This document shows positions 2,390 through 15,466 of a stretch of 31,061 bases of DNA, piece by piece. A program made the position numbers and the translations under genes. The DNA lies in the IMG/VR virus record IMGVR_UViG_3300029767_000022, positions 1 to 31,061 of that record; one strand, 5' to 3'. Within the stretch, counting starts at the first letter, position 1, and the number at the start of each line of letters is the position of its first letter. The notes below the pieces were generated by a model that saw only the letters and a list, made by a program, of their open reading frames with translations, was not told where the DNA came from and ran no database searches. The stretch comes from a virus.

Positions 2390-2845
2390 TTAGAACACGT
2401 CCCATTCGTTGTCGGTCTGGTTGAGCGAGTTGGTCGGGCCGAACGTGTCGGTTCCCGTCCACTGGTTGCCGGTCTGCTGGTCTTGCTGAGGCTGCTGGTT
2501 CTTGGCTTTGAGCATGGCGAGGCTGATGGTCGCGTGTTCGATGATGAAGTCGGTGCGCGGCTGCCCTTGGTTGTCGGTGTCGGTCTTCCATTTCAGGACA
2601 CCCTCGACCCTTACCGGTGTGCCCTTGCGCAGCATGCGTTCGTAGGTTTCCGCAAGTCTCAGGTCATACTCGAATATGGTCGCCCACATGGTGTTGTGGT
2701 CTACCCACTGTTTTGTGGTCTTGTCCATGTGTCCGCCTGTGGCGGCGACTTGGATAAGCATGTAGGGGGTGCCGTTGCGGGTCTGTTTGCGTTCGGGGTC
2801 TGCCGCCAAGCGTGCGATCGGCAGTGTGATTCTTGGATCATTCAT
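2390..2845 (-). CDS. ssb: Single-stranded DNA-binding protein
   Basis: 151 aa. N-terminal OB-fold-like pattern (ITLPIARLAADPERKQTRNGTPYMLIQVAAT...VRVEGVLKWKT), a Gln/Gly/Asn-rich linker, and an acidic-aromatic C-terminal tip DNEWDVF typical of bacterial/phage SSB. Confidence 0.9.
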   Translation of the reverse strand: MNDPRITLPIARLAADPERKQTRNGTPYMLIQVAATGGHMDKTTKQWVDHNTMWATIFEYDLRLAETYERMLRKGTPVRVEGVLKWKTDTDNQGQPRTDFIIEHATISLAMLKAKNQQPQQDQQTGNQWTGTDTFGPTNSLNQTDNEWDVF

Positions 2846-3020
2846 CGTTGATCGTTGCTCCCATGGGTAGTGGTGTGATGTCGGGGTTGAAGTAGTAGCG
2901 GTTGCCTACCTTGATGTATGGCAGTCGTTTCTCACGGCAGTATCTGCGGACCGTCTGGATGTTGAGGTGCCATCGTTCCGCGTACTGCTCCGTCGTTGCG
3001 GTGTAGTCTCTAGCGTACAT
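2838..3020 (-). CDS. Small helix-turn-helix DNA-binding protein (excisionase/MerR-like HTH, 60 aa); first gene of the leftward arm
   Basis: The pattern EQYAERWHLNIQTVRRYCREKRLPYIKVGNRYYF matches the Xis/MerR-type HTH (…T.rr....G.lp..k.G.r..F). No Shine-Dalgarno precedes ATG 3020, and a predicted promoter places +1 on the A of the ATG. Confidence 0.8.
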   Translation of the reverse strand: MYARDYTATTEQYAERWHLNIQTVRRYCREKRLPYIKVGNRYYFNPDITPLPMGATINDE

Positions 3021-3026
3021 GATTCA

Positions 3027-3055
3027 AATATACATCAGATTATTCTTGATTGCAA
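3027..3055 (-). promoter_or_regulatory. Candidate leftward promoter (leaderless transcript for the HTH gene)
   Basis: On the minus strand: -35 TTGCAA (3055..3050), a 17-nt spacer, and -10 TATATT (3032..3027). Standard spacing puts +1 at 3020, the A of the ATG. Confidence 0.4.
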
Positions 3056-3078
3056 GTAGTATGTGCTAGCTATATAAT
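3050..3078 (+). promoter_or_regulatory. Candidate rightward promoter of the replication-initiator operon
   Basis: -35 TTGCAA (3050..3055), a 17-nt spacer, and -10 TATAAT (3073..3078), embedded in an alternating AT tract TATATAATATATATAT. The -35 hexamer is its own reverse complement and is shared with the leftward promoter. Confidence 0.55.
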
Positions 3079-3141
3079 ATATATATGCGCACTGGTTCCG
3101 GGCGCACCAATATCAAATAAGATAGTAATAGGAATAAAGTA

Positions 3142-3173
3142 AGCGCCTCCCCGTGGAAACTGAGGGAGGCGCT
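3142..3173 (-). terminator. Perfect 10-bp GC-rich hairpin; reads as an intrinsic terminator on the minus strand and as a 5-prime-UTR stem-loop on the plus strand
   Basis: AGCGCCTCCC (3142..3151), a 12-nt loop, then GGGAGGCGCT (3164..3173). On the minus strand it is followed by TACTTTATTCCTATT (U-rich). On the plus strand no T tract follows, and it ends 18 nt before GTG 3191. Confidence 0.45.
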
Positions 3174-3190
3174 AACAGAAAGGTGGAAAC

Positions 3191-4099
3191 GTGTCCGATA
3201 CGAGTATAGCACAGAACTCGGGTTTTTCGATGCTGCCGAATTGGGCGGTGGATGATGACAGGTTGGGTGCCTACGATCTGCTGGTGTATATGGCGCTGAT
3301 ACGTCACGCCGACAACACCGGGCTCTGCTGGCCTAGTTTGGAGAGGCTGGCGAAGGTCGCGCGTTGCTCACAGCCCACGGTATCCAAGAGCCTCAACGTG
3401 CTGGAACAATTGGGGTACATTCGACGGGTCAAGTCCGATGGCAGGGCCAACCGGTATCACGTCTCGCTGTGGAAGCCCACCCCAAAACAGGGTTATGACC
3501 ATGCACCGACCCCAAAACCTGCTTTTGACCATGCACCGACCCCAAAACCTGCTTTTGACCCCCCAAAACCTGCTTTTGACCCACCCCAAAACGAGGTTTT
3601 GACTAACAATACCCAAGAGAATAAAACCCAAGAACAATACTCGCGCGACAAAGAAAAAATTACAGTCGCCTGCCATTCGGTGGATACCCTCAAGGCTCTT
3701 ATGGCGTTGTGGCCAAAGAAGTGCAGGGTGTCTAACGAATTCCTCATGTATTTCAATACGGCTTACGACGAGGTTGGTGCCGATGCGCTTATGAGAGCGG
3801 CGAAGCGTTTCGTGAAATCCTGCGAGGGTACGCCATTGCAGTATGTGCGGACTCTGCCCATGTGGCTGGCCGACTCGGTTAATTGGAGGGTCCAGAAGCC
3901 GGAGCAACGCAGCGAAGCCAAGTTAACGAATTGGATGGCCCATAGGCTTCCCGATTCCATGTCCGCCGACGTGGCGACCGTTCTGCGTGCGAGGCGTGTG
4001 TATTGGGGTGCCACCGGTGGTGTGGAGGCTTTGGAAATGGAATTCTTCCCAGACGAAGTTAAGAATGTGGGCAATTTGCAACAAGAACCAACAGTGTGA
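3191..4099 (+). CDS. Replication initiator-like protein, N-terminal winged-helix DNA-binding domain (302 aa, GTG start)
   Basis: The N-terminus (LPNWAVDDDRLGAYDLLVYMALIRHADNTGLCWPSLERLAKVARCSQPTVSKSLNVLEQLGYIRR) fits the helix-turn-helix replication/DnaD-type phage initiator pattern. A Pro-rich repeat linker DHAPTPKPAF x2 follows. RBS AAAGGTGG precedes GTG 3191. Confidence 0.75.
   Translation: MSDTSIAQNSGFSMLPNWAVDDDRLGAYDLLVYMALIRHADNTGLCWPSLERLAKVARCSQPTVSKSLNVLEQLGYIRRVKSDGRANRYHVSLWKPTPKQGYDHAPTPKPAFDHAPTPKPAFDPPKPAFDPPQNEVLTNNTQENKTQEQYSRDKEKITVACHSVDTLKALMALWPKKCRVSNEFLMYFNTAYDEVGADALMRAAKRFVKSCEGTPLQYVRTLPMWLADSVNWRVQKPEQRSEAKLTNWMAHRLPDSMSADVATVLRARRVYWGATGGVEALEMEFFPDEVKNVGNLQQEPTV
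3476..3592 (+). repeat. Iteron-like direct repeats inside the initiator gene (candidate origin of replication)
   Basis: There are two exact 30-bp units GACCATGCACCGACCCCAAAACCTGCTTTT (3497..3526, 3527..3556) and one 21-bp unit GACCCCCCAAAACCTGCTTTT (3557..3577). Further CCCCAAAAC cores lie at about 3478 and 3583. An AT-rich stretch follows at 3593..3663. Confidence 0.6.
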
Positions 4100-4118
4100 T
4101 ATAATATCTATATCACAC
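4076..4118 (+). promoter_or_regulatory. Extended -10 promoter overlapped by palindromic operator (copy 1)
   Basis: -35 TTGCAA (4076..4081), an 18-nt spacer, and TGATATAAT with -10 at 4100..4105. The palindrome is GTGTGATATA-atatc-TATATCACAC (4094..4118), with perfect 10-bp arms. Confidence 0.6.
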
Positions 4119-4138
4119 ATTGCATGGAAAGGATGCAT

Positions 4139-4537
4139 ATGAAAATCTACACAAACCGATACCACGACTTTACCCCGTCACAAGGCATACCGGTACGCAT
4201 AACGTACGGTTCGCCACGATGGCGACTTTCGTACACAATCGCAGCATCGGCGAAAACAGTGACGCCGGGCCGATGGTTCACGGAAGGAACCGACGAAGAA
4301 TTCACCGAACGGTATCGTGCCATGCTGGACTCACACGGGGTCGCCCGCATCAGAACGGAACTTGAAACGATATCGCAACTCAACGGAGGTAAAGACATCG
4401 TGCTTCTATGCTTCGATGACGTAAAAAAAGGCTTGTGCCACCGAACGATTTTCGCCCAATGGTGGCAGGAAAAGACCGGTGAAGAAGTCAAGGAATTACA
4501 AAAAGGTTTGGAGGCCGATCAAAATGTGCTATTCTAA
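4139..4537 (+). CDS. DUF488-family protein (132 aa)
   Basis: MKIYTNRYHDF...IPVRITYGSPRW...VTPGRWF...EEFTERYRAMLD...DIVLLCFDD...CHRTIFAQWW matches the DUF488 signature (MxIYTxxY ... ISxxxPxW ... LAPs ... Y...L ... vLLCyE...CHR..va.WL). ATG 4139 lies 5 nt after GAAAGGA. The track start 4124 is less likely. Confidence 0.85.
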   Translation: MKIYTNRYHDFTPSQGIPVRITYGSPRWRLSYTIAASAKTVTPGRWFTEGTDEEFTERYRAMLDSHGVARIRTELETISQLNGGKDIVLLCFDDVKKGLCHRTIFAQWWQEKTGEEVKELQKGLEADQNVLF

Positions 4538-4551
4538 TGACCGTTGCTATT

Positions 4552-4624
4552 CCGCCCCTAGCTCACCGGATAGAGCGCCCAATCTCGAATTGGGAGGCAC
4601 CAAGTTCGACTCTTGGGGGGCGGT
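4552..4624 (+). tRNA. tRNA-Arg (anticodon UCG), 73 nt, CCA not encoded
   Basis: Cloverleaf folded by hand. Acceptor stem CCGCCCC/GGGGCGG, then T8 A9. D arm GCTC-ACCGGATA-GAGC. Anticodon arm CCCAA-TCTCGAA-TTGGG. Variable loop AGGCA. T arm CCAAG-TTCGACT-CTTGG. Discriminator T4624. All stems are Watson-Crick. Position 33 is C, not U. Confidence 0.85.
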
Positions 4625-4627
4625 CTG

Positions 4628-6034
4628 ATGGCAGGTTTCAACTCACCGTCCATACTGTTCCTCAACACTTGGGATAAGCCAGAACGTGATTGGAACGGGA
4701 ATCTGTTTAGGCAGGCACTCGCGTCAGGGTATACGCGATACGTCGAACTGTACGCCGGAGCCTTCGCCAACTGCATGGTCGCCGTGGAGAACGGTTGGAA
4801 ACCGGAGCAAATCGAGGCGTGCGACGTGTGGGCGTACACCGCAGCGCTCGGATATGCGTACAGCGGGACGCCTCTCACCGAAATGCGGGCAACCGTTGAC
4901 GGTTCACCAGTCCCGCTCTCAGGAAACGCAGCGGATGACGCGGCTACCGTAATCTTGGCGCAATACCGTATGCGTCTCAGCAAGCACGACGATATCGATT
5001 ACTACCGTGAACTTCTGTCTGATCTTGACATCAACGGTTCGGAACACGTCGGCCAGCTACGGGAGCGAATCGCGGCGAATATGGTCAAGTTGGGGGGGCT
5101 GAGATACGAGCCCACCGACCCGATGAAGTATGCGGAACGCGTTATGGACGACCCGCACGCCATCGTGTTCGCCAATCCCCCTACGTATCCGGGAGCTTAT
5201 GAAAAGTTCTTCGAGACCGGGGGGAGGTTCCAATGGGCGGAACCTGAATACAACGTGTTCAATGCTCCCGTTGATATTCCCAAGCTCTGTAAGCTGTTCG
5301 ATGGGCGTAAGGCGTTGCTGATCTGCCAGCAGCAGCAAACGCCCGGAAACGCCGCAACTGATAGCCCGGTCTACGCTAGGCGTCTGGGTTTGGACAGTGT
5401 GATTTACATGAATTCCAACCGTCCGAACGAGGTCAAACGTCTTGTCGGCGGGAACATGGTGACTGTGGCGGCGTCGAAATCGGCGGAGATACCGATACCG
5501 ATATTGCCCAGAGATCATCAGATTACCGAACGTTCCGAAATCAAGGTCGTACCGTTACGTGATAGTACGGTACAAGACTCGTATCTGCAAGTGATGCGGC
5601 ATAGGATATCGGGAAACGTGAGCCCGATGTGTGTTCTCGTACTAATCGACGGTTACGTTGCCGGGATCATCGGATATGGTTTGCCAAATCCCATGTACAC
5701 GATTCGCTACGCGGTATTGCGTCAAGCATTCGGGGTATCCCACAAACGGTATCGGCTTACGAAGCTGGTCACGATGATAGCGTTACGTCGTTCCACGTTC
5801 CAGCTCTGCGCTAAGCCCAAGACGCAGATACTCGTCGATGCGTGCGATGGGCTGGCAACCGTTGAGTACACGCGATATCCCGAATCCAAGGGACTTCGCG
5901 GCCTGATGAAACTGGACAGACGTGACCGTAAGAACGGACAGTATCAATTGCAGTATAAGAGCGATTGGCACGAAGAGATCGGCTTAAGGAACATTCTCGG
6001 ACAGTTCCTAGCCAAAGAGAACAGGAGGAGATAA
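4628..6034 (+). CDS. Two-domain protein: N-terminal Dam-family (D12-class) adenine-methyltransferase-like domain with atypical NPPTY motif, plus about 170-aa C-terminal domain of unknown function (468 aa)
   Basis: Three landmarks align with E. coli Dam at nearly the same residue numbers: YVELYAGAFA (aa 38-47; Dam LVEPFVGAGS), IVFANPPTYPG (aa 179-189; Dam VVYCDPPYAPL), and ALLICQQQ (aa 229-236; Dam PVLISNHD). The start is set at ATG 4628 because the track start lies inside the tRNA. The C-terminal part (…CVLVLIDGYVAGIIGYG…RLTKLVTMIALRR…) is unassigned. Confidence 0.7.
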   Translation: MAGFNSPSILFLNTWDKPERDWNGNLFRQALASGYTRYVELYAGAFANCMVAVENGWKPEQIEACDVWAYTAALGYAYSGTPLTEMRATVDGSPVPLSGNAADDAATVILAQYRMRLSKHDDIDYYRELLSDLDINGSEHVGQLRERIAANMVKLGGLRYEPTDPMKYAERVMDDPHAIVFANPPTYPGAYEKFFETGGRFQWAEPEYNVFNAPVDIPKLCKLFDGRKALLICQQQQTPGNAATDSPVYARRLGLDSVIYMNSNRPNEVKRLVGGNMVTVAASKSAEIPIPILPRDHQITERSEIKVVPLRDSTVQDSYLQVMRHRISGNVSPMCVLVLIDGYVAGIIGYGLPNPMYTIRYAVLRQAFGVSHKRYRLTKLVTMIALRRSTFQLCAKPKTQILVDACDGLATVEYTRYPESKGLRGLMKLDRRDRKNGQYQLQYKSDWHEEIGLRNILGQFLAKENRRR

Positions 6035-6744
6035 TGGCCGATGTCGACACGTCGCAAGAAATGACCATAGCCGACGGTTTGGTAATCAAGTGGGTTGCCG
6101 TGGTCGATCTCAAGGAACAAGACCTGAACGCGCAGGTCATGGAACCACGTAAGTTCGACGCGCTGACCCAGAACATCAAGCTACGAGGGATGTTGGAGTC
6201 ATTGCCGTACTGTTCGCAACCGAACGGAGAAGGGCCGATAAGTATTGTTTCCGGCCATCATCGTACGAGAGCCGCCGCCCGCGCCGGTATCCAACGTATC
6301 CCGGTTATCGTGGACACGAAGCCTATGACACGTTCCACCATAACGGCGAAGCAGATAGCCGCCAACGAACTCACCGGCCACGCCGACGAGAAACTGTTGG
6401 CGCAGCTGGTCACTCAGATGGACAACGTAGACGACTTGTTGCTCAGCGGACTCGATCAGGACAGCCTACCGCACGTCGAACCGCAGCAAGTCAACCTGAA
6501 CGGTTTGAATGTGAAGTACGAGTATAAGGACGTGGAGTTTTTGTTTCTGCCCCGCGAATACGAAGAACTTGAACAGTTCGTGGATGATTGCAACTCGGAT
6601 ATGCTCGGGTTGGTGCCTATGGAATTGTACGACGAGTTCGTGCATCAGGTGACATCGTTCGCTTCACGTAACGGGATCAGGAATATGGCTGCTGCGGTAT
6701 CCAAGATCATCGATATAGCGAGGAAAGACGCCGAGGAAGAGTGA
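6034..6744 (+). CDS. ParB/Srx-like nuclease-domain protein (236 aa)
   Basis: PISIVSGHHRTRAAARAGIQRIPVIV is the ParB N-terminal (ParBc) GxxR box. ATG 6034 is preceded by AGGAGGAG and overlaps the upstream stop (TAATG 6032..6036). Confidence 0.85.
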   Translation: MADVDTSQEMTIADGLVIKWVAVVDLKEQDLNAQVMEPRKFDALTQNIKLRGMLESLPYCSQPNGEGPISIVSGHHRTRAAARAGIQRIPVIVDTKPMTRSTITAKQIAANELTGHADEKLLAQLVTQMDNVDDLLLSGLDQDSLPHVEPQQVNLNGLNVKYEYKDVEFLFLPREYEELEQFVDDCNSDMLGLVPMELYDEFVHQVTSFASRNGIRNMAAAVSKIIDIARKDAEEE

Positions 6745-6749
6745 TTACA

Positions 6750-6778
6750 GGCCGGGCGAGTCCCGGCCTTTTTGTTTG
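6750..6778 (+). terminator. Rho-independent terminator
   Basis: GGCCGGG-cgagt-CCCGGCC followed by TTTTTGTTT, starting 6 nt after the ParB-like stop. Confidence 0.85.
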
Positions 6779-6814
6779 CATCATAAGACACAATGTGATA
6801 TAATAAATATATCA
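6776..6814 (+). promoter_or_regulatory. Extended -10 promoter overlapped by palindromic operator (copy 2)
   Basis: -35 TTGCAT (6776..6781), a 17-nt spacer, and TGATATAAT with -10 at 6799..6804. The palindrome is TGATATA-ataaa-TATATCA (6796..6814). Confidence 0.6.
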
Positions 6815-6828
6815 AGCCAATAGGCTTG
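6813..6828 (+). promoter_or_regulatory. 5-prime-proximal mRNA stem-loop
   Basis: CAAGCC-aata-GGCTTG begins at about +2 of the predicted transcript from the 6776 promoter. Confidence 0.35.
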
Positions 6829-6850
6829 CATTATTCCCAAGGAGGACACA

Positions 6851-7231
6851 ATGAACGAGACATATATCCAGACTATTCGCGGCGACATCCAGCGCGTCAT
6901 CCACCTTGCCAAAGACCACTGGACTCAGGAGCCCAAACGGTGCGGCTTCAACTACCATCACGAACTCCACGGGTACATCCCAGTCTGCAAACTGTCCAAG
7001 CTGATCCGGGAAGCTCGGAACGAAACATGGGAGGAATACGCTTGGCTCTGCTACGAGAACCGCTACCTGACTCTGGAGCAGAAGGCTGCACAGATGCTGG
7101 AGTGCGAAAGCTATACAAAGTTTTTCACGACGCTGTACGAAACCTTTAAGCAGAAATCCCAGATGGAATCGCATCACACTGTCGCAAAAGTATTCGTCGG
7201 CGTTGACGGCTTCGAGTACCGCGCCTTCTGA
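6851..7231 (+). CDS. Hypothetical protein (126 aa)
   Basis: Track ORF with AAGGAGGA 6 nt upstream of the ATG. No family recognised. Confidence 0.85.
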   Translation: MNETYIQTIRGDIQRVIHLAKDHWTQEPKRCGFNYHHELHGYIPVCKLSKLIREARNETWEEYAWLCYENRYLTLEQKAAQMLECESYTKFFTTLYETFKQKSQMESHHTVAKVFVGVDGFEYRAF

Positions 7232-7252
7232 CAAGGCAAAGGAGGAACAGAA

Positions 7253-7630
7253 ATGGGAAACGCTACGGAAATCACTCTCGATCAGGCCCGCGACATGATT
7301 CGCAGCATCGATAACCGTCTAATCCCCGAATGCCGCGACTTCGACACATACACCGAGACAGACGATATCTGGCGTATCGGAGATTACGGATACGTTGACG
7401 CCGACGTGTACGAGCAAGCATTCCGGGACTATGAGGAACGTAACGGGAAGACCGAGTGGGCGAGCACCATGTACGTGCTTGAAGGCAATCAGCCGACCCG
7501 CCTCGAAGCCTTCGTGAAAGCGTACAATCTCGGCGGGATGCCAATGCTGGACGGGCTTTTGGGTGCCCAGTTCGACAACGGGGACGCGGATAATGTGTAT
7601 CTGACGAACGGCGAGGCATGGCCAATCTGA
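7253..7630 (+). CDS. Hypothetical, strongly acidic protein (125 aa; 25 Asp+Glu vs 10 Arg+Lys by hand count)
   Basis: Track ORF with AAAGGAGGA upstream of the ATG. No family recognised. Confidence 0.85.
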   Translation: MGNATEITLDQARDMIRSIDNRLIPECRDFDTYTETDDIWRIGDYGYVDADVYEQAFRDYEERNGKTEWASTMYVLEGNQPTRLEAFVKAYNLGGMPMLDGLLGAQFDNGDADNVYLTNGEAWPI

Positions 7631-7702
7631 GTTAATGCATGTCCTAGTGTCCCAATTGGCGTTATCTCGCCAGTTAGGACGTCATAGACACTCGTCCTAG
7701 CA

Positions 7703-7784
7703 CGTCCTACTAGGGGCGCTGGGACATGTCTATACGTGTCGCTGATTGCCTAATCCCACAACATGTGATATACTTTATATATCA
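7703..7784 (+). repeat. About 82-bp duplicated intergenic promoter block, copy 1 (partner 8761..8841)
   Basis: CGTCCTACTAGGGGCGCTGGGACATGTCTATACGTGTCGCTGATTGCCTAATCCCACAACATGTGATATACTTTATATATCA compared with CGTCCTACTAGGGCGCTGGAACCTGTCCCTGCGTGTCGCTGATTGCCTAATCCCACCACATGTGATATATTATATATATCA. The central 24 nt CGTGTCGCTGATTGCCTAATCCCA are identical. Confidence 0.9.
7746..7784 (+). promoter_or_regulatory. Extended -10 promoter overlapped by palindromic operator (copy 3)
   Basis: -35 TTGCCT (7746..7751), a 17-nt spacer, and TGATATACT with -10 at 7769..7774. The palindrome is TGATATA-cttta-TATATCA (7766..7784). Confidence 0.6.
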
Positions 7785-7810
7785 TCACATTATCAGAAAG
7801 GAGCACTGAG

Positions 7811-8404
7811 ATGGCAACCAACAATCTCAGCAACAAGTTCATGCAAGTTCTCAACGAAGTCCCCAACTTCGTCACCGACGAAACCGCACAGGCAGGCAAC
7901 CGGACTTATAAGTATCTCAACCTCGCCACGATACTCAAAACCATCAAACCGGTTTTCGAGAAGTACGGTCTGGCATTCAGCCAGCGCGTCACGTTCGACA
8001 ACACGGGAGAAACGCGACAGGCCATCGGAACAGTGGAAACCATCATTTTTGATGATACAGACCAGATGGTGGTCTGCTCCTATCCGTTCTTTGTGACCGG
8101 CGACCCCCAGCAGGTCGGTAGCGCGATCACTTACGCCCGCCGCTATAGTCTCTACGCAGTGTTGGGCATCTTCCCCGACAAGGACGACGACGGAGCGTAT
8201 GCCAAGCAGCGTTACGAGACCGCAGACCGTGCGATCAGCGCCGAACAGTACGCCGATCTGGTCAAGGCTATGGATGCGCACAATATCACATCCGCGGAGC
8301 GCGGAGACTTCATCAACGGCACTCTGAAACGTCGGGTCAGGGGATGGAATGGACTCACGCAAACCGACCTGAACAGTCTGATGAACGCCGTCAACCGAAT
8401 GTAA
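7811..8404 (+). CDS. erf: ERF-family single-strand annealing recombinase
   Basis: YKYLNLATILKTIKPVFEKYGLAFSQ ... QQVGSAITYARRYSLYAVLGIFPDKDDDG is the conserved Erf core (Y.Y..l..i...v.p.l...gl ... GsaiTYaRRY.l...lGi...DDDg). RBS AAAGGAG. Confidence 0.9.
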   Translation: MATNNLSNKFMQVLNEVPNFVTDETAQAGNRTYKYLNLATILKTIKPVFEKYGLAFSQRVTFDNTGETRQAIGTVETIIFDDTDQMVVCSYPFFVTGDPQQVGSAITYARRYSLYAVLGIFPDKDDDGAYAKQRYETADRAISAEQYADLVKAMDAHNITSAERGDFINGTLKRRVRGWNGLTQTDLNSLMNAVNRM

Positions 8405-8503
8405 GTGGCCTTTCGCGTTGGCGCACTTTTGGGATTTTGCTTAAAACAAACCGATTTATAAGCCCTCTTGTTCTAATAAGGGAGCTGGAATGGAGTATCT
8501 GAA

Positions 8504-8671
8504 ATGTTTGACAACGAACTTGCCTTCGACAAGCTGCTTGACTCGCTCGGCGCGGAAACGCTGCTGGATAATCTCGTTCGGGCGTTGACGGCTGATGAGC
8601 AGCGTGAGAACTTCGATTATATTGCGCGTTGCTTTGACATTGATCTTTCCGACTGCGAAAGCGAGGCGTGA
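8504..8671 (+). CDS. Small acidic hypothetical protein (55 aa)
   Basis: Below the track cutoff. Hand translation: MFDNELAFDKLLDSLGAETLLDNLVRALTADEQRENFDYIARCFDIDLSDCESEA (15 acidic, 4 basic residues). It has the same orientation as all neighbours and is followed by a weak hairpin GGGGA/TCCCC plus CTCTTATATT. It competes with the antisense track ORF 8456..8743. Confidence 0.55.
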   Translation: MFDNELAFDKLLDSLGAETLLDNLVRALTADEQRENFDYIARCFDIDLSDCESEA

Positions 8672-8760
8672 AAGGGGAACGTAAGTAGTCCCCCTCTTAT
8701 ATTCCGGGCTTTCGGGCGTGAGCCTATCAATCACACCCATCAATCACCGTTGATTATCCA

Positions 8761-8841
8761 CGTCCTACTAGGGCGCTGGAACCTGTCCCTGCGTGTCGCT
8801 GATTGCCTAATCCCACCACATGTGATATATTATATATATCA
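8761..8841 (+). repeat. About 82-bp duplicated intergenic promoter block, copy 2 (partner 7703..7784)
   Basis: See copy 1. An extra TGATATA half-site lies at 8853..8859. Confidence 0.9.
8803..8841 (+). promoter_or_regulatory. Extended -10 promoter overlapped by palindromic operator (copy 4)
   Basis: -35 TTGCCT (8803..8808), a 17-nt spacer, and TGATATATT with -10 at 8826..8831. The palindrome is TGATATA-ttata-TATATCA (8823..8841). Confidence 0.6.
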
Positions 8842-8924
8842 GGCATCGGGCTTGATATATGACCTAAGGAGTTGAACACAAACCATTATCAGTAATCGCA
8901 TTCTATATTCAGCATGAAAGACTT

Positions 8925-8950
8925 GTGGGCGGGACTCGTCACCCGCCCAC
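8925..8950 (+). promoter_or_regulatory. GC-rich 9-bp hairpin in the 5-prime UTR of the exonuclease gene
   Basis: GTGGGCGGG-actcgtca-CCCGCCCAC ends 23 nt before ATG 8974. Its position is analogous to the 3142..3173 hairpin before the initiator gene. Confidence 0.4.
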
Positions 8951-8973
8951 ACCCAACCGAAAGGACAACATCA

Positions 8974-9882
8974 ATGAAGATCATCAATGTATCGCAAGCC
9001 CACGAAACCGAGGCATGGCTCGACGAACGAGTGGGCCGTATCACCGGCACCAAAAGCGGCGGACTCGCCTTGGAACACTACGCTCAGACCGACGTAGAAA
9101 AACTTAAAGAGTACCGAGACAAGGCGTTGGAACAAGCGAAGAAGGCGAAGACGCCAGACAAAGCCAACGAGTATTACACGAAGGCCCAGAACTACGACGA
9201 GAAGATCGTGGACGCCGAAGCCAAGAACAAGCGGCTTAAGGTCGGCGTGGACTTCTGGAAGTTCCTAGCGGAACTGTGGGCCGGACCAGCGGACGGTGAA
9301 CCTCCGATGGAACGCGGCCACCGTCTCGAACCCGAGAATATCCAGATCACACTCAAAACGCTTGGCTTCAACCCCGTCGATTGCGTCCCCGATTGCGGTA
9401 TCTGGGAGAGTGACGACGACAACCGTATCGCGTGCAGTCCAGACGCCTACGAGAACACTGAGGAGCCGACGTGGGCCATCGAATGCAAGTCGCTCGGCTC
9501 AGCCTACCATTTGCAGACGGTAGTGCCGTGGATGATGCACACGGACGCCATGCGATCTCATATCGTCAACCTGAAACCTGAGCTGGTGGACGTTATTGAG
9601 CAGGTTCTTCCGGAATACACGCTCGACGGAAAGGCGACCGGCTTCGACTTTATCCCCGACCAGTATAAGGCGCAGGTGCTGCAATACTTCGTGGTGTGCG
9701 ATTCGCTGGAAGTCCTGTTTTTCTCGATGTTTGACCCGCGCGTGGTCGGAGAGGCAAGCCATCAGGTTATTCCCGTGTACCGTAAGGACATTACCGCAGA
9801 GATCGAGGAACATAAGCGTCGCCAGCTGGCCACGCTCCATATCTCCGATGTGCTGGCCGACGCTCTGGGGGTGACGTTCTGA
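8974..9882 (+). CDS. YqaJ-like (lambda-Exo-type, PD-(D/E)xK) recombination exonuclease (302 aa)
   Basis: ETEAWLDERVGRITGTKSGGL is the YqaJ N-terminal signature. CSPDAY...WAIECKSLGS fits the D...E.K nuclease core. The start is set at ATG 8974 (GAAAGGA upstream). Track start 8914 has no RBS and would place the 8925..8950 hairpin in coding sequence. The gene is a partner of Erf. Confidence 0.85.
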   Translation: MKIINVSQAHETEAWLDERVGRITGTKSGGLALEHYAQTDVEKLKEYRDKALEQAKKAKTPDKANEYYTKAQNYDEKIVDAEAKNKRLKVGVDFWKFLAELWAGPADGEPPMERGHRLEPENIQITLKTLGFNPVDCVPDCGIWESDDDNRIACSPDAYENTEEPTWAIECKSLGSAYHLQTVVPWMMHTDAMRSHIVNLKPELVDVIEQVLPEYTLDGKATGFDFIPDQYKAQVLQYFVVCDSLEVLFFSMFDPRVVGEASHQVIPVYRKDITAEIEEHKRRQLATLHISDVLADALGVTF

Positions 9883-10208
9883 TGAAGACCGCAACCATTC
9901 TGGAAAGCCCTGACATGTTCGCACTATTTGACGGATGCCCCACATGCAAGCGGCAGAGCGCCGTTTATCTGATGACGTGCCGCGTGTACGCCCAACAGAT
10001 GGGGCGTAGGCTCCGTATCGTGTCGTCGGGCAGCCCCACCGCCCGGGCGATACGCGCCATCGCCAAAGATCAAGGCGTAATCGTGCGCTACCCGATGATC
10101 TTGCTGGACGGATTGTTTTACTTCGAGCCGCAAGACATCAGCCTTGACGATTATCTAGTGGACGATGACGAAACCGAAGAAGAAGAGGAGGAACCCAATG
10201 AAAAATAG
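9882..10208 (+). CDS. Hypothetical protein with poly-acidic C-terminal tail (108 aa)
   Basis: Track ORF with an ATGA overlap with the exonuclease stop. The tail reads DDYLVDDDETEEEEEEPNEK. Confidence 0.8.
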   Translation: MKTATILESPDMFALFDGCPTCKRQSAVYLMTCRVYAQQMGRRLRIVSSGSPTARAIRAIAKDQGVIVRYPMILLDGLFYFEPQDISLDDYLVDDDETEEEEEEPNEK

Positions 10209-10536
10209 CATTTTAACCAGCGATGTGCTGGAACTGTTCGACCGTAACCATATCACCGCGAACACTCTGCGTAAGTTCGTGGTGGAGAGCGTTGCCGACT
10301 TTCTCGGAGACAACAAGCATGACAAGGTGTGCGGCAAACTGTTTGACCGTTGGTATCAGCACGTTCGACGCTCCATTTGGGTCGGTGCCGCTCAATACAT
10401 CTTGCAACAGCACGGGTTCGACCACGACGAAGCCACCAACGAGGCGAAACAACTCTACGAAAGCCTGTACGCGGATTACGACAAGCGGTATCACTGCTGG
10501 CGTCGCCACGAGGAAAGGAAAACCGATGAAGACTAA
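10198..10536 (+). CDS. Hypothetical protein (112 aa)
   Basis: Track ORF 10165..10536 trimmed to ATG 10198 (MKNSILTS...), preceded by GAGGAGGAA. Confidence 0.75.
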   Translation: MKNSILTSDVLELFDRNHITANTLRKFVVESVADFLGDNKHDKVCGKLFDRWYQHVRRSIWVGAAQYILQQHGFDHDEATNEAKQLYESLYADYDKRYHCWRRHEERKTDED

Positions 10537-10891
10537 TGGCAATTGGTGGACTGCCGTGCTTTCGGCTGGAATCACGGCGGGATACGCGACCACTGTCGTA
10601 CAGCTCTCGCCCGGCCCCGGCTATATGTTCTCCGCGCTCCGCCGCAAGCTGACCGTAAAGACCGAGAACCTGTCCAACTCGCTCCCCACGTGGGCCAAGG
10701 ATTACGTGGACAGTCTCGGAGAACTCGCCTATTGCGGCTGGTGTCTCAGCCCGTGGGTGTCGCTTCCGGTATGGGCGATGGCAGCCAAGATCAACCGGAT
10801 ACGGTTCGGAGTCAAGTGGGTGGCCGGGTGGATTGTGGCCGCTGGCATGGCCGCGTTCCTCCGCCACTCCGCTGAAACGGCGGTGGCATAA
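10526..10891 (+). CDS. Membrane protein, DUF1360-like (121 aa)
   Basis: Internal ATG 10526 of track ORF 10223..10891 (MKTNGNWWTAVLSAGITAGY...), preceded by GGAAAGGAAAA. It has hydrophobic segments, and the motif YCGWCLSPWVSLPVW resembles DUF1360 membrane proteins. The N-terminal 101 codons of the track ORF overlap the previous gene and are Ser/Thr/Cys-rich noise. Confidence 0.7.
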   Translation: MKTNGNWWTAVLSAGITAGYATTVVQLSPGPGYMFSALRRKLTVKTENLSNSLPTWAKDYVDSLGELAYCGWCLSPWVSLPVWAMAAKINRIRFGVKWVAGWIVAAGMAAFLRHSAETAVA

Positions 10892-11169
10892 TGTTCAACA
10901 AACAACAGGTTCATGTGCTGTTGATTCTTTGGATGGCTAAGCGACCGCTTACCCACGAGGAAATCGAACGTATGGCGGTATTAGCGAAGTATGACGATAC
11001 TCCGCAGGGATTGAGGACGCGCATGATCGAGCTTGAGCGTTCCGGTCATGTGTACCGTGTCGATCGGGATGGCGTGAACAGTCGGCACCGTCATTGCTGG
11101 CGGTTCGCGCTGACTGACGATGGGCGCGAAGCCATCAGTGAACTGTTCGGCAAAAACAGAAACATGTGA
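10891..11169 (+). CDS. Winged-helix (MarR/PadR-like) DNA-binding protein (92 aa)
   Basis: HVLLILWMAKRPLTHEEIERMAV...LRTRMIELERSGHVYRV fits a winged-helix recognition helix plus wing. ATAATG overlap with the upstream stop. Confidence 0.7.
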   Translation: MFNKQQVHVLLILWMAKRPLTHEEIERMAVLAKYDDTPQGLRTRMIELERSGHVYRVDRDGVNSRHRHCWRFALTDDGREAISELFGKNRNM

Positions 11170-11187
11170 TATAATCTATATATCACA
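11146..11187 (+). promoter_or_regulatory. Extended -10 promoter overlapped by palindromic operator (copy 5)
   Basis: TGATATAAT with -10 at 11170..11175. The -35 is weak (TTCGGC, 11146..11151, 18-nt spacer). The palindrome is TGTGATATA-atcta-TATATCACA (11165..11187), with perfect 9-bp arms. Confidence 0.5.
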
Positions 11188-11206
11188 TATCATAGGGAGG
11201 TGAAAC

Positions 11207-11536
11207 ATGCGCAAGCACAACAAAATCAAACCCGTAATCAACGGCCAAGAAGTCACCGTGGAACAGGACAGCCAGACCGGCCAGTTCTTCACACGACAGA
11301 ACATCGGCAACATCCCAGTTGACTACGCGACTATCAGCGACAGGGTGACCATCGGCCAGTGCATCAAATACTGGAGGATACGCCACGGGTATTCACAGGC
11401 GGAACTAGCCGAACGAATCGGCGTATCCAGCCCAAACGTAATAGCCATGTGGGAAAACGGACGCCGCAAACCGCAAAAGCAATACCGGTTGCGGCTGGCC
11501 GAACACCTCGGCTATGACATCCTGACCAAAGACTAG
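11207..11536 (+). CDS. XRE-family helix-turn-helix transcriptional regulator (109 aa)
   Basis: IGQCIKYWRIRHGYSQAELAERIGVSSPNVIAMWENGRRKP is a textbook HTH_3/XRE motif. RBS GGGAGGTGA. The gene sits directly behind the best palindrome copy. Confidence 0.85.
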   Translation: MRKHNKIKPVINGQEVTVEQDSQTGQFFTRQNIGNIPVDYATISDRVTIGQCIKYWRIRHGYSQAELAERIGVSSPNVIAMWENGRRKPQKQYRLRLAEHLGYDILTKD

Positions 11537-11585
11537 AACCTTGCACGATTAATCCAATCATCATCATCACACCAAAGGAGCAACA

Positions 11586-11873
11586 ATGAACACCATCAAC
11601 TATCTGACCTCGATCATCAACCTCTTACAGAAAAACCCCCAAGCACAGGAAATCATCGACACCCAAGGACTCGGACAGGAACTCACGTTCGGTCAAATCG
11701 GGATTAAAGACACCAAAGCGTTCCTCAAACTCTACGACGTTCTGGGCAGCGTTGAAGGCGTTAAGATCACGGCCATCCACGAATGCAAGACAGACACCGA
11801 TAGGCAATTTTTCTTCAAACTCGTCTCCCCGATAACCTTGTACTTCTTCCACTGCGAAGGAGTATCCGAGTGA
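11586..11873 (+). CDS. Hypothetical protein (95 aa)
   Basis: Track ORF with AAAGGAG upstream. No family recognised. Confidence 0.8.
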   Translation: MNTINYLTSIINLLQKNPQAQEIIDTQGLGQELTFGQIGIKDTKAFLKLYDVLGSVEGVKITAIHECKTDTDRQFFFKLVSPITLYFFHCEGVSE

Positions 11874-12199
11874 GCAAAACAGACCCTGATATCGAAACCC
11901 GTATGAAAGTGTTCCACCGAGACCACGGCAGATGCTTCATCTGTGGGCAATTCTTGAGCTCCTCCGCTTTCAACCTGCACCACAGGCGTATGCGCTCCCA
12001 CGCTTGGGAAGGACTAAACCTACCCAGCAACCTGATTACCGTCTGCGGCTCGGGTACTATGGGATGTCACGCACGCATCCACGCCCACCCAAAGGAATCA
12101 TACGCGAAGGGCTGGCTGGTAAGCGCCTACAACGATCACCCCGAGAACGTTCCAGTGTTCAGCGAATACCGAAATCGAGAATTCCTCTTGAACAACTGA
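11870..12199 (+). CDS. HNH endonuclease (109 aa, GTG start)
   Basis: RCFICG...NLHHRRMRS...NLITVCGSGTMGCHARIH matches the HNH zinc-finger/His-Asn-His pattern. GTGA overlap with the upstream stop. Confidence 0.9.
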   Translation: MSKTDPDIETRMKVFHRDHGRCFICGQFLSSSAFNLHHRRMRSHAWEGLNLPSNLITVCGSGTMGCHARIHAHPKESYAKGWLVSAYNDHPENVPVFSEYRNREFLLNN

Positions 12200-12211
12200 A
12201 AAAAGAAAGAA

Positions 12212-12248
12212 TAGCCCGGCACCAGTCGTCAAGACCAGTGTCGGGCTA
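12212..12248. terminator. Long hairpin at the convergence point of the two arms (bidirectional terminator candidate)
   Basis: TAGCCCGGCAC...GTGTCGGGCTA gives about an 11-bp stem with one G-U pair. It lies between the HNH stop (12199) and the last leftward gene stop (12326). Confidence 0.65.
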
Positions 12249-12325
12249 GTTCATTCGGTCATCACACCATCGCTCGAAAGGAGCAACACCAGTCTACCAC
12301 TTGGAAACACCAGTGTAGATGTGGT

Positions 12326-12760
12326 TCACGCTTCCTCACGCCACCCCTGCGGGTAAGCGTCCGGGGTCCACACGCAACCGTCGTAGATGCACGTGTAGTG
12401 TTTCCCGTTGTAGGTGATTTTGTCGCCTACATGATAGGCGTCGTGCGCGCCGGTAGGCTGCTTGTATTCCGGCCACTCGTCGGACGGTTCCTCGGGTTCG
12501 CCGGGGTCGGTCGATAAGCCGGATTCCAGCTTGCTCAAACGCTCCTCGACGGTTGTCTCCCATTCCTCAATGGCCTTCACGCGGTCGGCCAATGGGGCGT
12601 AGGAATCGTCGGGCTTGGCGTTTGTCTGCGCCTGTTCGAGAAGCTGTTTCATCTCATCCTCGGTAAGTTCGCTCATCGCATACAGCGTCTTGATGCGCTG
12701 GGTGAGGTCTGCGAGGTCGTAGCCTCCGGCGTTGATGAGGGTTTGGAATGTTTCGAACAT
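12326..12760 (-). CDS. Protein with C-terminal CBM5/12-like carbohydrate-binding motif and XkdX-like N-terminus (144 aa); last gene of the late arm
   Basis: The C-terminus AYHVGDKITYNGKHYTCIYDGCVWTPDAYPQGW fits the Y..GD.V.Y.G..Y.c......W.P......W pattern of CBM5/12. The N-terminus MFETFQTLINAGGYDLADL...ELTEDEMKQLL loosely resembles XkdX-type phage proteins. RBS AAGGAG. Confidence 0.75.
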   Translation of the reverse strand: MFETFQTLINAGGYDLADLTQRIKTLYAMSELTEDEMKQLLEQAQTNAKPDDSYAPLADRVKAIEEWETTVEERLSKLESGLSTDPGEPEEPSDEWPEYKQPTGAHDAYHVGDKITYNGKHYTCIYDGCVWTPDAYPQGWREEA

Positions 12761-12809
12761 TGGTTATGCTCCTTGGCGGAACAACTCGGATGCAATTGTC
12801 ATCATTACC

Positions 12810-13085
12810 TCACTTGGAGATGCCTGCGTAGTGGACGCCGAACATTCCGGCAACGCCGGAGCCGACCAGAGCGCAAGCGCCACCCATCACGGCCACCCAC
12901 GACGGCATGTCCGGTACAGCGCTCACGAAACTCAGCACCGCACCGGCGATACCAACCAGTCCGGAAACAAGATACGCCCACTTGCGAGTCGCTGCGTTGA
13001 ACGCCGGCACGTAATTATCATTACCGTCCGGCACTTCGTTATTGATCGCGGTGTCCTTGGTCGGATCACCAGTATTAATGCTCAT
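12810..13085 (-). CDS. Holin candidate (91 aa, two hydrophobic segments)
   Basis: WAYLVSGLVGIAGAVLSFVSAV and WVAVMGGACALVGSGVAGMFGV are two putative TM helices. The gene lies directly downstream of the endolysin. RBS TAGGAGG. Confidence 0.7.
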   Translation of the reverse strand: MSINTGDPTKDTAINNEVPDGNDNYVPAFNAATRKWAYLVSGLVGIAGAVLSFVSAVPDMPSWVAVMGGACALVGSGVAGMFGVHYAGISK

Positions 13086-13106
13086 AACAAACCTCCTATC
13101 GATAGT

Positions 13107-14264
13107 TTACTTGATGCGGATTGTCTGGCCCGCGTAGATCACGTCAGGGTTGGCGATACCGTTCAACGCCACCAGATTGGAGACACTGGTACCGTACTGG
13201 GCGGCGATACCACTCAATGTGTCACCGGGCTGGATAGTGTACGTCGTAACGGACGGTGACGGTGTAACGGACGGTGACGGTGCTCCGCCCGGCAGTTTCA
13301 GCACCTGACCCGGATAAATCAGATTAGGGTCGGCAATGCCGTTAAGCTGCTGGAGAGTCTGCCACGAAGTCCCAAACTTGGCGGCGATACCACTCAGCGT
13401 GTCCCCCGACTGCACCGTATACGTTCCACTACCGGACTGAACAGTATTGGCAGTACCATTGATATTCAACACCTGACCCGGATAAATCAGATTAGGGTCA
13501 GACAGATTATTAATCTGCGCCAACACCTGCCAGCTAGTCCCATACATCGACGCGATACCACTCAGAGTGTCACCAGAGCGCACGATGTACGTGCCAGACG
13601 CGGGAGTAGACGGAGCAGGAGCGGAAGGGGTCGGCACGTTGGTCACACTCGAATGACCCGCCTTATACGCGTTCCACGCATTCACATCACCATAGAACTT
13701 GTCAAGGTCAAGACTGCCTGAATATCCGGGCAGACGACCATTGCCCGAATACTGGCGGATAGCGCACGCATATGCGCCCTCGTTCCACGGCGTATCCTGA
13801 TACCCAGTAGCGTCCATATTCGCGTACTGGGCTACCCACAATCCACGATCACCAATGTTCTGCACGTCGTTAAGCATGGACGCTCCCACGTAGACGATAG
13901 GCTGGGAGCCTGTACGCTCGTACACGCGGTCACAGAACGACCTAATCCACTGCTGAGCAGACGCGCCAGACCCGACCAGTCCGTTACCCTGTTGCTCCCA
14001 GTCCAAGCACCATACGACCTTGCCGACCCAATTCGCGCAATTGTTCACAAAGTAGTCAGCCTCGGAAACGGCGTTACCGCCGTTAGCGTAATGGTATACG
14101 CCCACACACTTTCCCAGACTCAACGCCTGTTCCACCTGCCGAGCGCAATCCGCTGAAACATACCAGCATCCCTCTGTTGCCTTACTGATGACGAAATCAC
14201 ACGGTACAGCAGACAGGTCTATACCAGCCTGCCAATTACTAATGTCGATACCGTTCAAAGCCAT
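13107..14264 (-). CDS. Endolysin: GH25 muramidase domain plus three LysM repeats (385 aa)
   Basis: [29 protein letters not shown]...GVYHYANG is the GH25 signature. Three LysM modules follow ([20 protein letters not shown]..., [20 protein letters not shown]..., [20 protein letters not shown]...). The start is set at ATG 14264 with GGAGGAG 6 nt upstream. The 42-codon extension of the track ORF overlaps another small ORF. Confidence 0.92.
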
Positions 14265-14275
14265 CGAAACTCCTC

Positions 14276-14407
14276 CTATAGGCTGATCGTGTAGAAGAAC
14301 AGCCACGCCATGCATAAAACGGCGTAGGCCGTTATCAGAACGTGGACTATCAACGAGACGACAGAGAACGACATGATAATGATCATGCACCGTTTGAAAC
14401 GTCTCAT
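14276..14407 (-). CDS. Small hydrophobic protein (43 aa) overlapping the endolysin RBS; possible second holin/antiholin-type lysis factor
   Basis: Below the track cutoff. Hand translation: [43 protein letters not shown]. Its TAG stop (14278..14276) lies inside the endolysin Shine-Dalgarno region. Confidence 0.5.
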
Positions 14408-14451
14408 AGGATCACTTTAACATCAAAAACGAATCGATATTATTATCACCG

Positions 14452-14495
14452 ATAATGCCCATTATGCTAGAAACGGTGGAATTTGGAAACAGAAG
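14452..14495. repeat. Diverged direct repeat, copy A (partner 15315..15358); on the minus strand it contains a promoter-like TTTCCA-N17-CATAAT
   Basis: ATAATGCCCATTATGCTAGAAACGGTGGAATTTGGAAACAGAAG compared with ATAATGCCCCTTATGTCAGGAACGGTGGCGTGTGGAAGCTGAAG gives 34/44 identical by hand. Weaker, codon-phased similarity continues for about 50 nt. The minus-strand -10 is at 14466..14461 and the -35 at 14489..14484. Confidence 0.7.
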
Positions 14496-14501
14496 AACGT
14501 T

Positions 14502-14927
14502 GTGATCGACCCATACGCTGCAATGACTTTCAGTAGATCAGACGGACAATTGCAGGTAAACAACGGCATAACGCTAATGCGTATGACGTTTACGCATAAC
14601 GACTTCGACAGCGCATCTATCGTGAACGATAGTAAAGGAGCGAACGTAACTAACCTACCCGTAGGCGATTACTCCGTCTCCCTTACACTGCCAATGTCGA
14701 GCAACACCGGATGACTGAACCTCAATATCGGTGGCAGCAGTGGAATAACGAATTTAGGCCCGACTGTAAGCGAACAATTAACGGAAGGAGACGGGTTTAC
14801 CCGATTGAATTTGGCCACGATGCTGAGAGTAACTCAGACGAACACGAAGATACGGGTTTTCACAAACAATAACGTTTCCGATACCATGCGTGAAAAAGGA
14901 GCCAAGTTCATAACACGGCTCGGCTAG
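14502..14927 (+). pseudogene. Opposite-strand ORF inside the late arm, interrupted by one in-frame TGA (14712..14714): either a decaying moron gene or a read-through gene (70-aa and 141-aa products)
   Basis: Track ORF 14502..14714 (GTG start) continues in the same frame after the TGA to TAG 14925..14927, checked codon by codon: ...SSNTG*LNLNIGGSSGITNLGPTVSEQLTEGDGFTRLNLATMLRVTQTNTKIRVFTNNNVSDTMREKGAKFITRLG. No minus-strand ORF of 60 aa or more lies between 14391 and 14907. Hand-counted GC is 39-44% over 14401..14640. Confidence 0.5.
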
Positions 14928-15292
14928 TCATTATCTCCGGCCAGTTCCTCAAGCGATGCAATACGGTCGCGTAGATTATCAGGCAACGACGGTTTAGGAT
15001 AACCCTCCAAAAATTCAGGATCGATAATCTCGCAGACCTTCGACACCCAGTGACCCAACGCACGAATGTATCCCGTCTCCAAGTCGATGGTGTATTGCAA
15101 CTCATCACGATGCTTTATTAGCGCGTTTATCTTCTGGTCTTGCGCGTCGATCTGCCGTTTCATATCCCCCTGCGCGGAAACTAGGTCTTGATACGCGCTG
15201 GTCAGGTCCGACCGTCGGTTGGCTAGCCATGTTATGAGTCCTCCGAGTGCTACGCCGCCTACGCCGATGATCGCCGTGAAAATATCAATCAT
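14924..15292 (-). CDS. Membrane-anchored coiled-coil protein (122 aa), lysis-associated candidate (XhlA-like architecture)
   Basis: The N-terminal TM segment is IFTAIIGVGGVALGGLITWLA. A heptad-like region SAYQDLVSAQGDMKRQIDAQDQKINALIKHRDELQ follows. The stop overlaps the convergent plus-strand ORF in a CTAG tetranucleotide (14924..14927). Confidence 0.75.
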   Translation of the reverse strand: MIDIFTAIIGVGGVALGGLITWLANRRSDLTSAYQDLVSAQGDMKRQIDAQDQKINALIKHRDELQYTIDLETGYIRALGHWVSKVCEIIDPEFLEGYPKPSLPDNLRDRIASLEELAGDND

Positions 15293-15314
15293 AATCGCAT
15301 CTTACACCAATACA

Positions 15315-15358
15315 ATAATGCCCCTTATGTCAGGAACGGTGGCGTGTGGAAGCTGAAG
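15315..15358. repeat. Diverged direct repeat, copy B (partner 14452..14495); minus strand reads CTTCCA-N17-CATAAG
   Basis: See copy A. The minus-strand -10 is at 15329..15324 and the -35 at 15352..15347, about 25 nt upstream of ATG 15292. Confidence 0.7.
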
Positions 15359-15466
15359 CGTAAGACGATTACGTTCGGCAGTGATCAACACGTCTGGACA
15401 GATTTACATAATGTATGGTTCCGAAAACACGTTGCAGAGCGGTCGCATCACCGTTTGCTGGGAGTA

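Follow-up and report, generated by a model that had tools for sequence, protein, structure and literature searches.

A 19-bp palindrome, TGATATA-N5-TATATCA, is set into five predicted promoters of the early gene arm of the phage in IMG/VR record IMGVR_UViG_3300029767_000022 (31,061 nucleotides, analysed as a whole and called the window below). The 19-mer runs from the TG of an extended -10 element to about +4 relative to the predicted start of transcription: its left half supplies the TGnTATA of the promoter, and its right half would lie at about -3 to +4. In the reading that is favored here, at a probability of roughly 0.65, the five sites are early promoters for the primary sigma factor of the host, each equipped with a 19-bp operator for a phage repressor, most likely the XRE-family protein encoded just behind the last of them.

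The palindrome and its promoters

Five exact matches to TGATATA-N5-TATATCA are found in the window (coordinates in Table 1), where shuffles of the window lead one to expect 0.04. A search at up to two mismatches adds a single match, at 22985 within a late gene, and none of 100 shuffles reaches six; a search with the 23-mer, allowing mismatches at 5 of 18 positions, returns the same five sites and no others. A de novo search for direct repeats in 3000-12300 likewise ranks this family first. All five copies are confined to the non-coding 7.2% of the window, save for 3-nt overlaps with TGA stop codons, those of the genes at 3191-4099 and 10891-11169, which reach into palindrome left arms. The original prediction of five shared intergenic palindromes is borne out by these counts, and the letters that it quoted at 4094-4118 and 11165-11187 are correct. 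Arms of 9-10 bp are restricted to the copies at 4095 and 11165; the 25-mer form of the window operator is GTGTGATATAATATCTATATCACAC.

The -10 hexamers read, in the order of the sites, TATAAT, TATAAT, TATACT, TATATT and TATAAT, and TG stands one base upstream of the hexamer in all five. TTGnnn lies 17 ± 1 nt upstream in four of the five copies, the hexamer at 11146 being weak. The left arm accordingly doubles as an extended -10 element with TTGnnn 17-18 nt upstream and a weaker fifth copy, as had been proposed. Promoters of Bifidobacterium breve follow TTGACA-17-TATAAT (PMC5746004), and the five sites are predicted from their sequence to be host primary-sigma, extended -10 early promoters.

A sixth rightward promoter, in front of the replication initiator gene (3050-3078), had been taken for a degenerate copy of the same motif. 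It is a promoter without a palindrome: 4 of 14 core positions are mismatched, and the TG extension and the outer TGA/TCA are lacking. It would be the unregulated exception, and the proposal that one regulator serves every rightward operon therefore fits five of the six rightward promoters and fails at the initiator.

Conservation in close relatives

An exact search with the 23-mer retrieved 66 viral contig stretches, 60 of which are relatives of ~30 kb that are 85-97% identical; unrelated viral contigs with the exact 23-mer (L012, L027, L036, L041, L042) are AT-rich and contain isolated matches. Two further sets of relatives were assembled independently of the motif, 51 loci by way of the DAM-like/GNAT protein and 67 by way of the XRE protein. 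The 51 loci contain 216 copies of the palindrome (at up to two mismatches), mostly 9-45 nt ahead of an ATG-initiated open reading frame (ORF). TTGnnn is found 16-18 nt upstream in 211 of the 216, with a 17-nt spacer in 168. In the 67 loci, 251 copies are found in 504 kb of early arm versus none in 598 kb of late arm. The motif is thus conserved in related phages, as the original prediction implied.

Column conservation, computed on 227 copies from relatives (174 distinct sequences), is 88-99% in the left arm, TGATATA, and 97-100% in the right arm, TATATCA, with the T and G of the extended -10 element at 98-99%. Spacer positions 8, 10, 11 and 12 are 54-78% conserved, and position 9, the last base of the -10 hexamer, 95%; spacer and flanking bases as a whole, position 9 excepted, are 38-78% conserved. 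The element consequently has the features of a dyad operator: conserved arms (88-100%), a variable spacer, and overlap with the core promoter and start. A further, outer TG upstream on the left is conserved at 94% and 86%, with the mirror positions on the right at ~40%. Since it is kept on the left only, it belongs to the promoter (a TRTG-type -16 region), and the symmetric part measures 19 bp rather than 23-25 bp. The right arm matches no familiar promoter consensus and yet is the most invariant part of the element; it therefore constitutes the main evidence for a second function.

Distant clades and a symmetric variant

Three more distant clades allow the element to be followed further. The clade of contig L165 (YqaJ exonuclease 80% identical to that of the window) has five TGATAT-N7-ATATCA promoters, and the clade of contig L164 (YqaJ 66%, XRE 48% identical) has 2-3 motif copies per genome, against an expectation of 0.04 in either case; in the L164 clade the left arm is less strictly kept than the right, ATATCA, which does not vary. 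The clade of the cultured Bifidobacterium phages BlindBasel1 and BlindUri1, which includes bee-gut contigs, has another palindrome, TGTTA-N9-TAACA, which each complete genome carries at three early promoters (0.06 expected) and which is conserved among members with XRE proteins that are 83-84% identical. A search of IMG/VR turned up no relatives of this clade; metagenome contigs did include some.

An operator-type site of BlindBasel1 reads TGTTATACTGATACTAACA; the window site in the same notation is TGATA-N9-TATCA. Both 19-mers start at the TG of the extended -10 element, with the hexamer at positions 4-9, and what sets the two types apart is one symmetric change, which affects positions 3 and 17; position 3 is the free "n" of TGnTATAAT. 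A mirrored base change is what a co-evolving pair of dimeric protein and operator predicts, whereas shared promoter ancestry predicts none; the symmetric variant argues for such a pair. With an invariant right arm, restriction to the early arm, and a symmetric variant in the same 19-bp frame, the promoter-plus-operator reading of the original prediction is well supported by comparison.

A candidate repressor and what it would do

Three small proteins of the window with (putative) helix-turn-helix (HTH) folds are candidates for binding the palindrome (Table 1), and the XRE protein is favored among them. Its sequence matches include 434 repressor and SinR, and its structural model (predicted local distance difference test, pLDDT, 75; moderate) consists of an N-terminal beta domain, for which no significant match was found in PDB, and a five-helix domain. 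P22 c2, 434 repressor, SinR, HipB and the controller proteins of restriction-modification (R-M) systems are dimeric binders of palindromes. The XRE gene is syntenic in all four clades, upstream of an HNH gene, and a palindrome stands directly upstream of it in the window's clade (60 of the 67 XRE-fetched loci) and in L165. The recognition helix reads SSPNVIAMWENG in the window, SSPTVIMMWENG in L164, which has the same operator, and TTA-QAIRYWESG in BlindBasel1 (XRE gene at 3509-3922 of contig L067), which has a different one; TGATA-N9-TATCA is thus paired with SSPNV or SSPTV, and TGTTA-N9-TAACA with TTA-QA.

We infer that a phage-encoded dimeric DNA-binding protein would bind the operator and occlude -10 to +4 at all five promoters at once. 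If it is the XRE protein, as is most probable, it would be made from the last of the five, generating negative feedback or shut-off. Shut-off would affect the early arm, with its functions in replication, recombination and DNA modification, and would leave active both the leftward promoter and the initiator promoter, which has no operator. No terminator precedes the sites at 4095 and 11165, so that a bound repressor could block read-through transcription there as well.

Several points weigh against this reading. Promoter function fully explains the left arm, so that the case for an operator is carried by the right arm and the symmetry. The structural matches of the XRE protein are weak (Foldseek E 0.01-0.1, the nearest being P22 c2, HipB, SinR, R-M controller proteins and ClgR). 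The correspondence between operator type and XRE helix involves two operator types, with which all three candidates co-vary. The autoregulatory placement of the palindrome, found in the window's clade and L165, does not extend to the L164 clade and BlindBasel1, where there is no palindromic promoter directly before the XRE gene; the autoregulation suggested in the original prediction is no more than a possibility. Position 3 of the left arm varies in L164 (A, T or C), and its mirror on the right is unchanged. Wherever an examined relative covers the relevant positions, the XRE, winged-helix and HTH_17 proteins are found together, so that presence and absence do not discriminate between them. 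Finally, the host, probably of Bifidobacterium type, is deduced from kinship with Bifidobacterium phages.

A separate observation concerns the HTH_17 protein. In BlindBasel1 (L067) an unannotated HTH_17 ORF (28441-28286, minus strand) heads the leftward arm (region 28441-29139); its promoter contains a perfect palindrome, ATAACACAT-N5-ATGTGTTAT, the right arm of which is the extended -10 element, and ~650 nt of non-coding DNA lie between this promoter region and the ERF gene.

Alternative explanations

The operator might be as described and the XRE protein the wrong binder, its place being taken by the PadR-like winged-helix protein (10891-11169) or the HTH_17 protein (2838-3020); on balance this is unlikely. 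The winged-helix gene ends within the best palindrome, one database source names a homologue "putative PadR-family", and the predicted recognition segment is conserved between clades that have a common operator; proteins of the PadR and MarR families bind palindromes as dimers. The winged-helix protein nevertheless has no Pfam match, its low-confidence model (pLDDT 59) finds no significant Foldseek match, and a counterpart in BlindBasel1 is doubtful (phmmer E 0.007 against 13 proteins). The presence of the HTH_17 protein in all four clades, at the head of the opposite arm, would fit a switch between the two arms, away from the early one, but the sites of excisionase-type HTH_17 proteins are usually direct or asymmetric and bound by monomers. 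That no dedicated repressor exists at all, the right arm being a promoter or initially transcribed element (for start selection, RNA polymerase contacts or escape) or simply inherited with a duplicated cassette, is improbable. The left arm is, to be sure, wholly promoter sequence, the right arm covers the predicted start site, and the copies are evidently cassettes of paralogous origin (89% identity between 7714-7784 and 8771-8841). The right arm is, however, the exact mirror of the -10 half, and it stays invariant across hundreds of copies while neighboring positions diverge; we know of no primary-sigma promoter element TATATCA at -3 to +4; and in the Blind clade the downstream TAACA changes exactly as the upstream TGTTA does, which ancestry alone does not predict.

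Two further proposals have very little probability. One is that the palindrome functions as a nucleic-acid hairpin, either an RNA processing or stabilizing stem in read-through transcripts or a recombination-promoting DNA structure. The copies at 4095 and 11165, which have no terminator ahead of them, do fold as RNA (-12.1 and -9.6 kcal/mol; z -4.6 and -3.2), and the cassettes do lie at mosaic junctions, where 19 types of upstream flank and 12 of downstream flank are found in 32 combinations. The remaining three copies, on the other hand, fold no better than shuffled sequence; the stems are A/U-rich with no U tract behind; the arms are plainly invariant within the clade, without compensatory changes; and recombination at a conserved 45-nt promoter requires no special structure. 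Rfam yields no match anywhere in the window. The other proposal, recognition by a regulator that the host encodes, is no more credible. Phage promoters can borrow host operators, and the XRE protein and its two companions are candidate binders only; but a scan of 185,579 species genomes with the exact 23-mer, though not with the degenerate 19-mer, gave 45 scattered single matches, none of them in Bifidobacterium, and operator type differs between phage clades together with the phage-encoded HTH proteins.

Cassettes at module junctions

The promoter/operator cassettes mark junctions of mosaic gene modules. The flanks at 247 motif copies are of 19 upstream and 12 downstream types, and a version of the cassette of 85 nt is duplicated on both sides of the window's ERF module. 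In several copies the promoter stands between a terminator and a downstream stem-loop. About 40% run into a 5'-proximal stem, TCAAGC-loop-GCTTGA, that overlaps the right arm (in the window at 6813-6828 and 8833-8861) and shows compensatory variants in relatives (CAAGC/GCTTG versus CAGGC/GCCTG); it may be an mRNA-stabilizing hairpin or a third half-site.

Comparison with known systems

The operators of lambdoid phages, 434 and P22 offer a close likeness: there as here, dyad-symmetric sites of 14-19 bp cover the -10 and start regions of strong early promoters, and a dimeric XRE-fold binder (here proposed) also regulates its own gene; 434 repressor, P22 c2 and SinR are among the matches of the C-terminal domain in the window XRE protein, of which the structural ones are weak. 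The differences are that single operators are dispersed over five promoters here, in place of tandem O1-O3 arrays at two; that the window yielded no lysogeny gene, such as an integrase, and no CI-type C-terminal domain; that the operator half-site is fused to TGnTATA; and that the XRE protein has an N-terminal beta domain. The C-boxes of R-M systems share a small XRE-fold protein with a palindrome over the promoter of its own gene, and C.AhdI, C.BclI and C.EcoT38IS are among the structural matches of the XRE protein, all of them non-significant (E 0.04-0.13). C-boxes, however, are paired sites at one promoter that serve activation as well as repression, whereas here a single site is found at each of five promoters of unrelated genes. 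In the Streptomyces phage phiC31, conserved inverted repeats (CIRs) are bound by the c repressor. The resemblance lies in one palindrome at many early intergenic positions of an actinobacterial siphovirus, beside repeated early promoters, so that one protein could control the whole early arm; phiC31 is, in contrast, temperate, its early promoters are non-canonical, its CIRs lie apart from the promoter core, and the sequences and repressor families are unrelated.

Stoperators are sites of 13-14 bp, present in 20-30 copies, that act in an orientation-dependent manner. In cluster A mycobacteriophages they are asymmetric, are bound by a monomeric repressor, and occupy numerous positions across the genome (PMC9283540). 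They share with the present element the repetition of one repressor site in short intergenic gaps, a potential to block elongation as well as initiation, and clade-specific variants (PMC9283540, PMC6550527). The palindrome analyzed here is symmetric, is present in 3-6 copies, and is restricted to promoters and to the early arm (none in the 598 kb of late arm); it is not a stoperator. The early-promoter/stem-loop (PeSL) cassettes of T4-type phages are repeated, flank small variable modules, and serve as recombination junctions (PMC2839356, PMC4122927). Repeated early-promoter cassettes are junctions here too: the repeated promoter borders variable modules, and the flank combinations give evidence of reassortment at the repeat. 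PeSLs are not described as repressor operators, however, and host, promoter sequence and phage type are unrelated.

A more specific notion, which we put forward tentatively, combines these elements. The operator may be built into the extended -10 element, with the free base of TGnTATAAT as its specificity base, mirrored at the start site, so that an A/T swap would create a new specificity and leave the promoter undamaged; the same 45-nt cassette would serve as a patch of homology for exchange, and a virulent lineage of Bifidobacterium type would use one XRE protein for global shut-off together with PeSL-like shuffling of modules.

The phage and its genome

Table 1. Predicted promoters, putative operators and candidate regulators in the window
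Feature	Coordinates	Strand	Description
Promoter with putative operator, copy 1	4076..4115	+	-35 TTGCAA 4076-4081; spacer 18; extended -10 TGATATAAT 4097-4105; palindrome 4097-4115 (extended 4094-4118); left arm includes stop codon of initiator gene; precedes DUF488 gene (4124-4537)
Promoter with putative operator, copy 2	6776..6828	+	-35 TTGCAT 6776-6781; spacer 17; -10 6799-6804; palindrome 6796-6814; terminator-like hairpin 6749-6769 before; 5'-proximal stem CAAGCC/GGCTTG 6813-6828 after
Promoter with putative operator, copy 3	7701..7784	+	-35 TTGCCT 7746-7751; spacer 17; -10 TATACT 7769-7774; palindrome 7766-7784; within repeated cassette of ~85 nt, ahead of ERF recombinase gene
Promoter with putative operator, copy 4	8759..8861	+	-35 TTGCCT 8803-8808; spacer 17; -10 TATATT 8826-8831; palindrome 8823-8841; second copy of cassette, then 5' hairpin 8833-8861; ahead of YqaJ exonuclease operon
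Promoter with putative operator, copy 5	11146..11187	+	weak -35 TCGGCA/TTCGGC 11146-11152; extended -10 TGATATAAT 11167-11175; palindrome 11167-11185 (extended 11165-11187); stop codon of winged-helix gene in left arm; XRE gene begins 20 nt past extended palindrome
Rightward promoter of initiator gene	3050..3078	+	TTGCAA-17-TATAAT; no TG extension, no palindrome; equivalent in L165
Leftward promoter	3027..3055	-	TTGCAA-17-TATATT; -10 TATATT at 3032-3027
XRE-family protein, 109 aa	11207..11536	+	N-terminal beta domain, C-terminal HTH_3 domain (residues 50-105); leading candidate regulator
Winged-helix protein, 92 aa	10891..11169	+	winged-helix topology; PadR-like according to one source; second candidate regulator
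HTH_17 protein, 60 aa	2838..3020	-	excisionase/MerR-like HTH; first gene of leftward arm; third candidate regulator

Positions 1-109 and 30953-31061 of the window are an identical 109 nt, and relatives span the junction; this marks the window as a complete genome assembled as a circle, with a true length of 30,952 bp. It has a siphovirus layout of two divergent arms, starting at 3020 (leftward) and 3190 (rightward). The rightward arm (3191-12249) encodes an HTH_36 replication initiator, DUF488-N3a, DAM-like/GNAT and ParB_N proteins, ERF, the YqaJ exonuclease, the small winged-helix-like protein, the XRE protein and an HNH nuclease. The leftward arm encodes the HTH_17 protein, SSB, a RusA fusion protein, terminase, portal, capsid, tape measure and tail proteins, and a LysM endolysin. 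The gene annotation of the window contains no integrase, CI-type repressor or other lysogeny gene, and the XRE homologues retrieved, all of them at least 60% identical, lie exclusively on phage-sized contigs; a virulent lifestyle is therefore likely.

The closest cultured phages are BlindBasel1 and BlindUri1 (large terminase 62% identical; genome-wide synteny), which surfaced through a protein-level search; a megablast search with both arms gave no match among 50,697 phage records. The records that carry the phage in NCBI and ENA are metagenome contigs. The lineage is widespread and uncultured, its protein clusters having more than 1,500 member sequences in public assemblies, and its cultured relatives infect Bifidobacterium.

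The divergent promoters between the arms (3018-3078) stand back to back and share a self-complementary -35 hexamer, TTGCAA, at 3050-3055; the layout is the same in L165 and L164. The ATG of the HTH_17 gene lies only 7 nt after the leftward -10 hexamer, which points to a leaderless mRNA. The 5' leader of the initiator gene contains a strong GC-rich hairpin (3141-3173, GCGCCTCCC-loop-GGGAGGCGC); L165 retains the stem and has another loop. The hairpin might act in attenuation, or terminate transcription of the opposite strand. Within the HTH_36 initiator gene are five tandem iterons, CCCCAAAACCTGCTTTTGACC (3476-3609, at a spacing of 21-30 nt), likely an origin of replication in the style of lambda O. 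The possibility that the palindrome is a binding site for the initiator was rejected, since the initiator has these iterons of its own.

A gene cluster at 4124-6744 matches recently defined Pfam families of phage DNA modification (DUF488-N3a, DAM-like-phage1 with GNAT-phage-like, and ParB_N). The window's clade has the cluster, and L164 and L165 lack it. These two keep the motif without the genes, and the palindrome was accordingly rejected as a target of DNA modification by their products. A tRNA-Arg gene with anticodon TCG (4552-4625; ARAGORN) lies between the DUF488 and DAM-like/GNAT genes and overlaps the mechanically assigned TTG start of the ORF at 4613-6034, the true start of which is therefore probably later.

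Other features lie outside the early arm. A low-GC island in the late arm (14391-14923 and 15293-15466) includes two small rightward ORFs (14502-14714 and 14711-14872) and a direct repeat of ~45 nt (roughly 14452-14496 and 15314-15358); BlindBasel1 and L164 likewise have an opposite-strand gene between the lysin and tail genes. In contig L178 (IMGVR_UViG_3300014917_000051, 142 kb; 11379-18031) phage sequence stops just past the convergent end of the two arms and is followed by two IS605 OrfB/TnpB genes and then by unrelated genes, a junction that is probably either a TnpB insertion or a chimeric assembly.

Implications

The element would act like an operator of the lambdoid/434 type at dispersed early promoters, and would thus, by analogy, be a familiar kind of phage control element; the finding extends the well-known logic of phage repressors and operators and overturns nothing. 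What it provides is a regulatory map for a widespread uncultured phage lineage: six predicted early promoters, one candidate master regulator, and a defined 19-bp site. The cassettes, for their part, show where the modules of these genomes recombine. If the operator is indeed built into the promoter, a single symmetric A/T swap would yield a new regulatory specificity and leave the promoter unharmed. If confirmed, the system would constitute a compact promoter/operator pair with two natural specificity variants, possibly useful in Bifidobacterium genetics.

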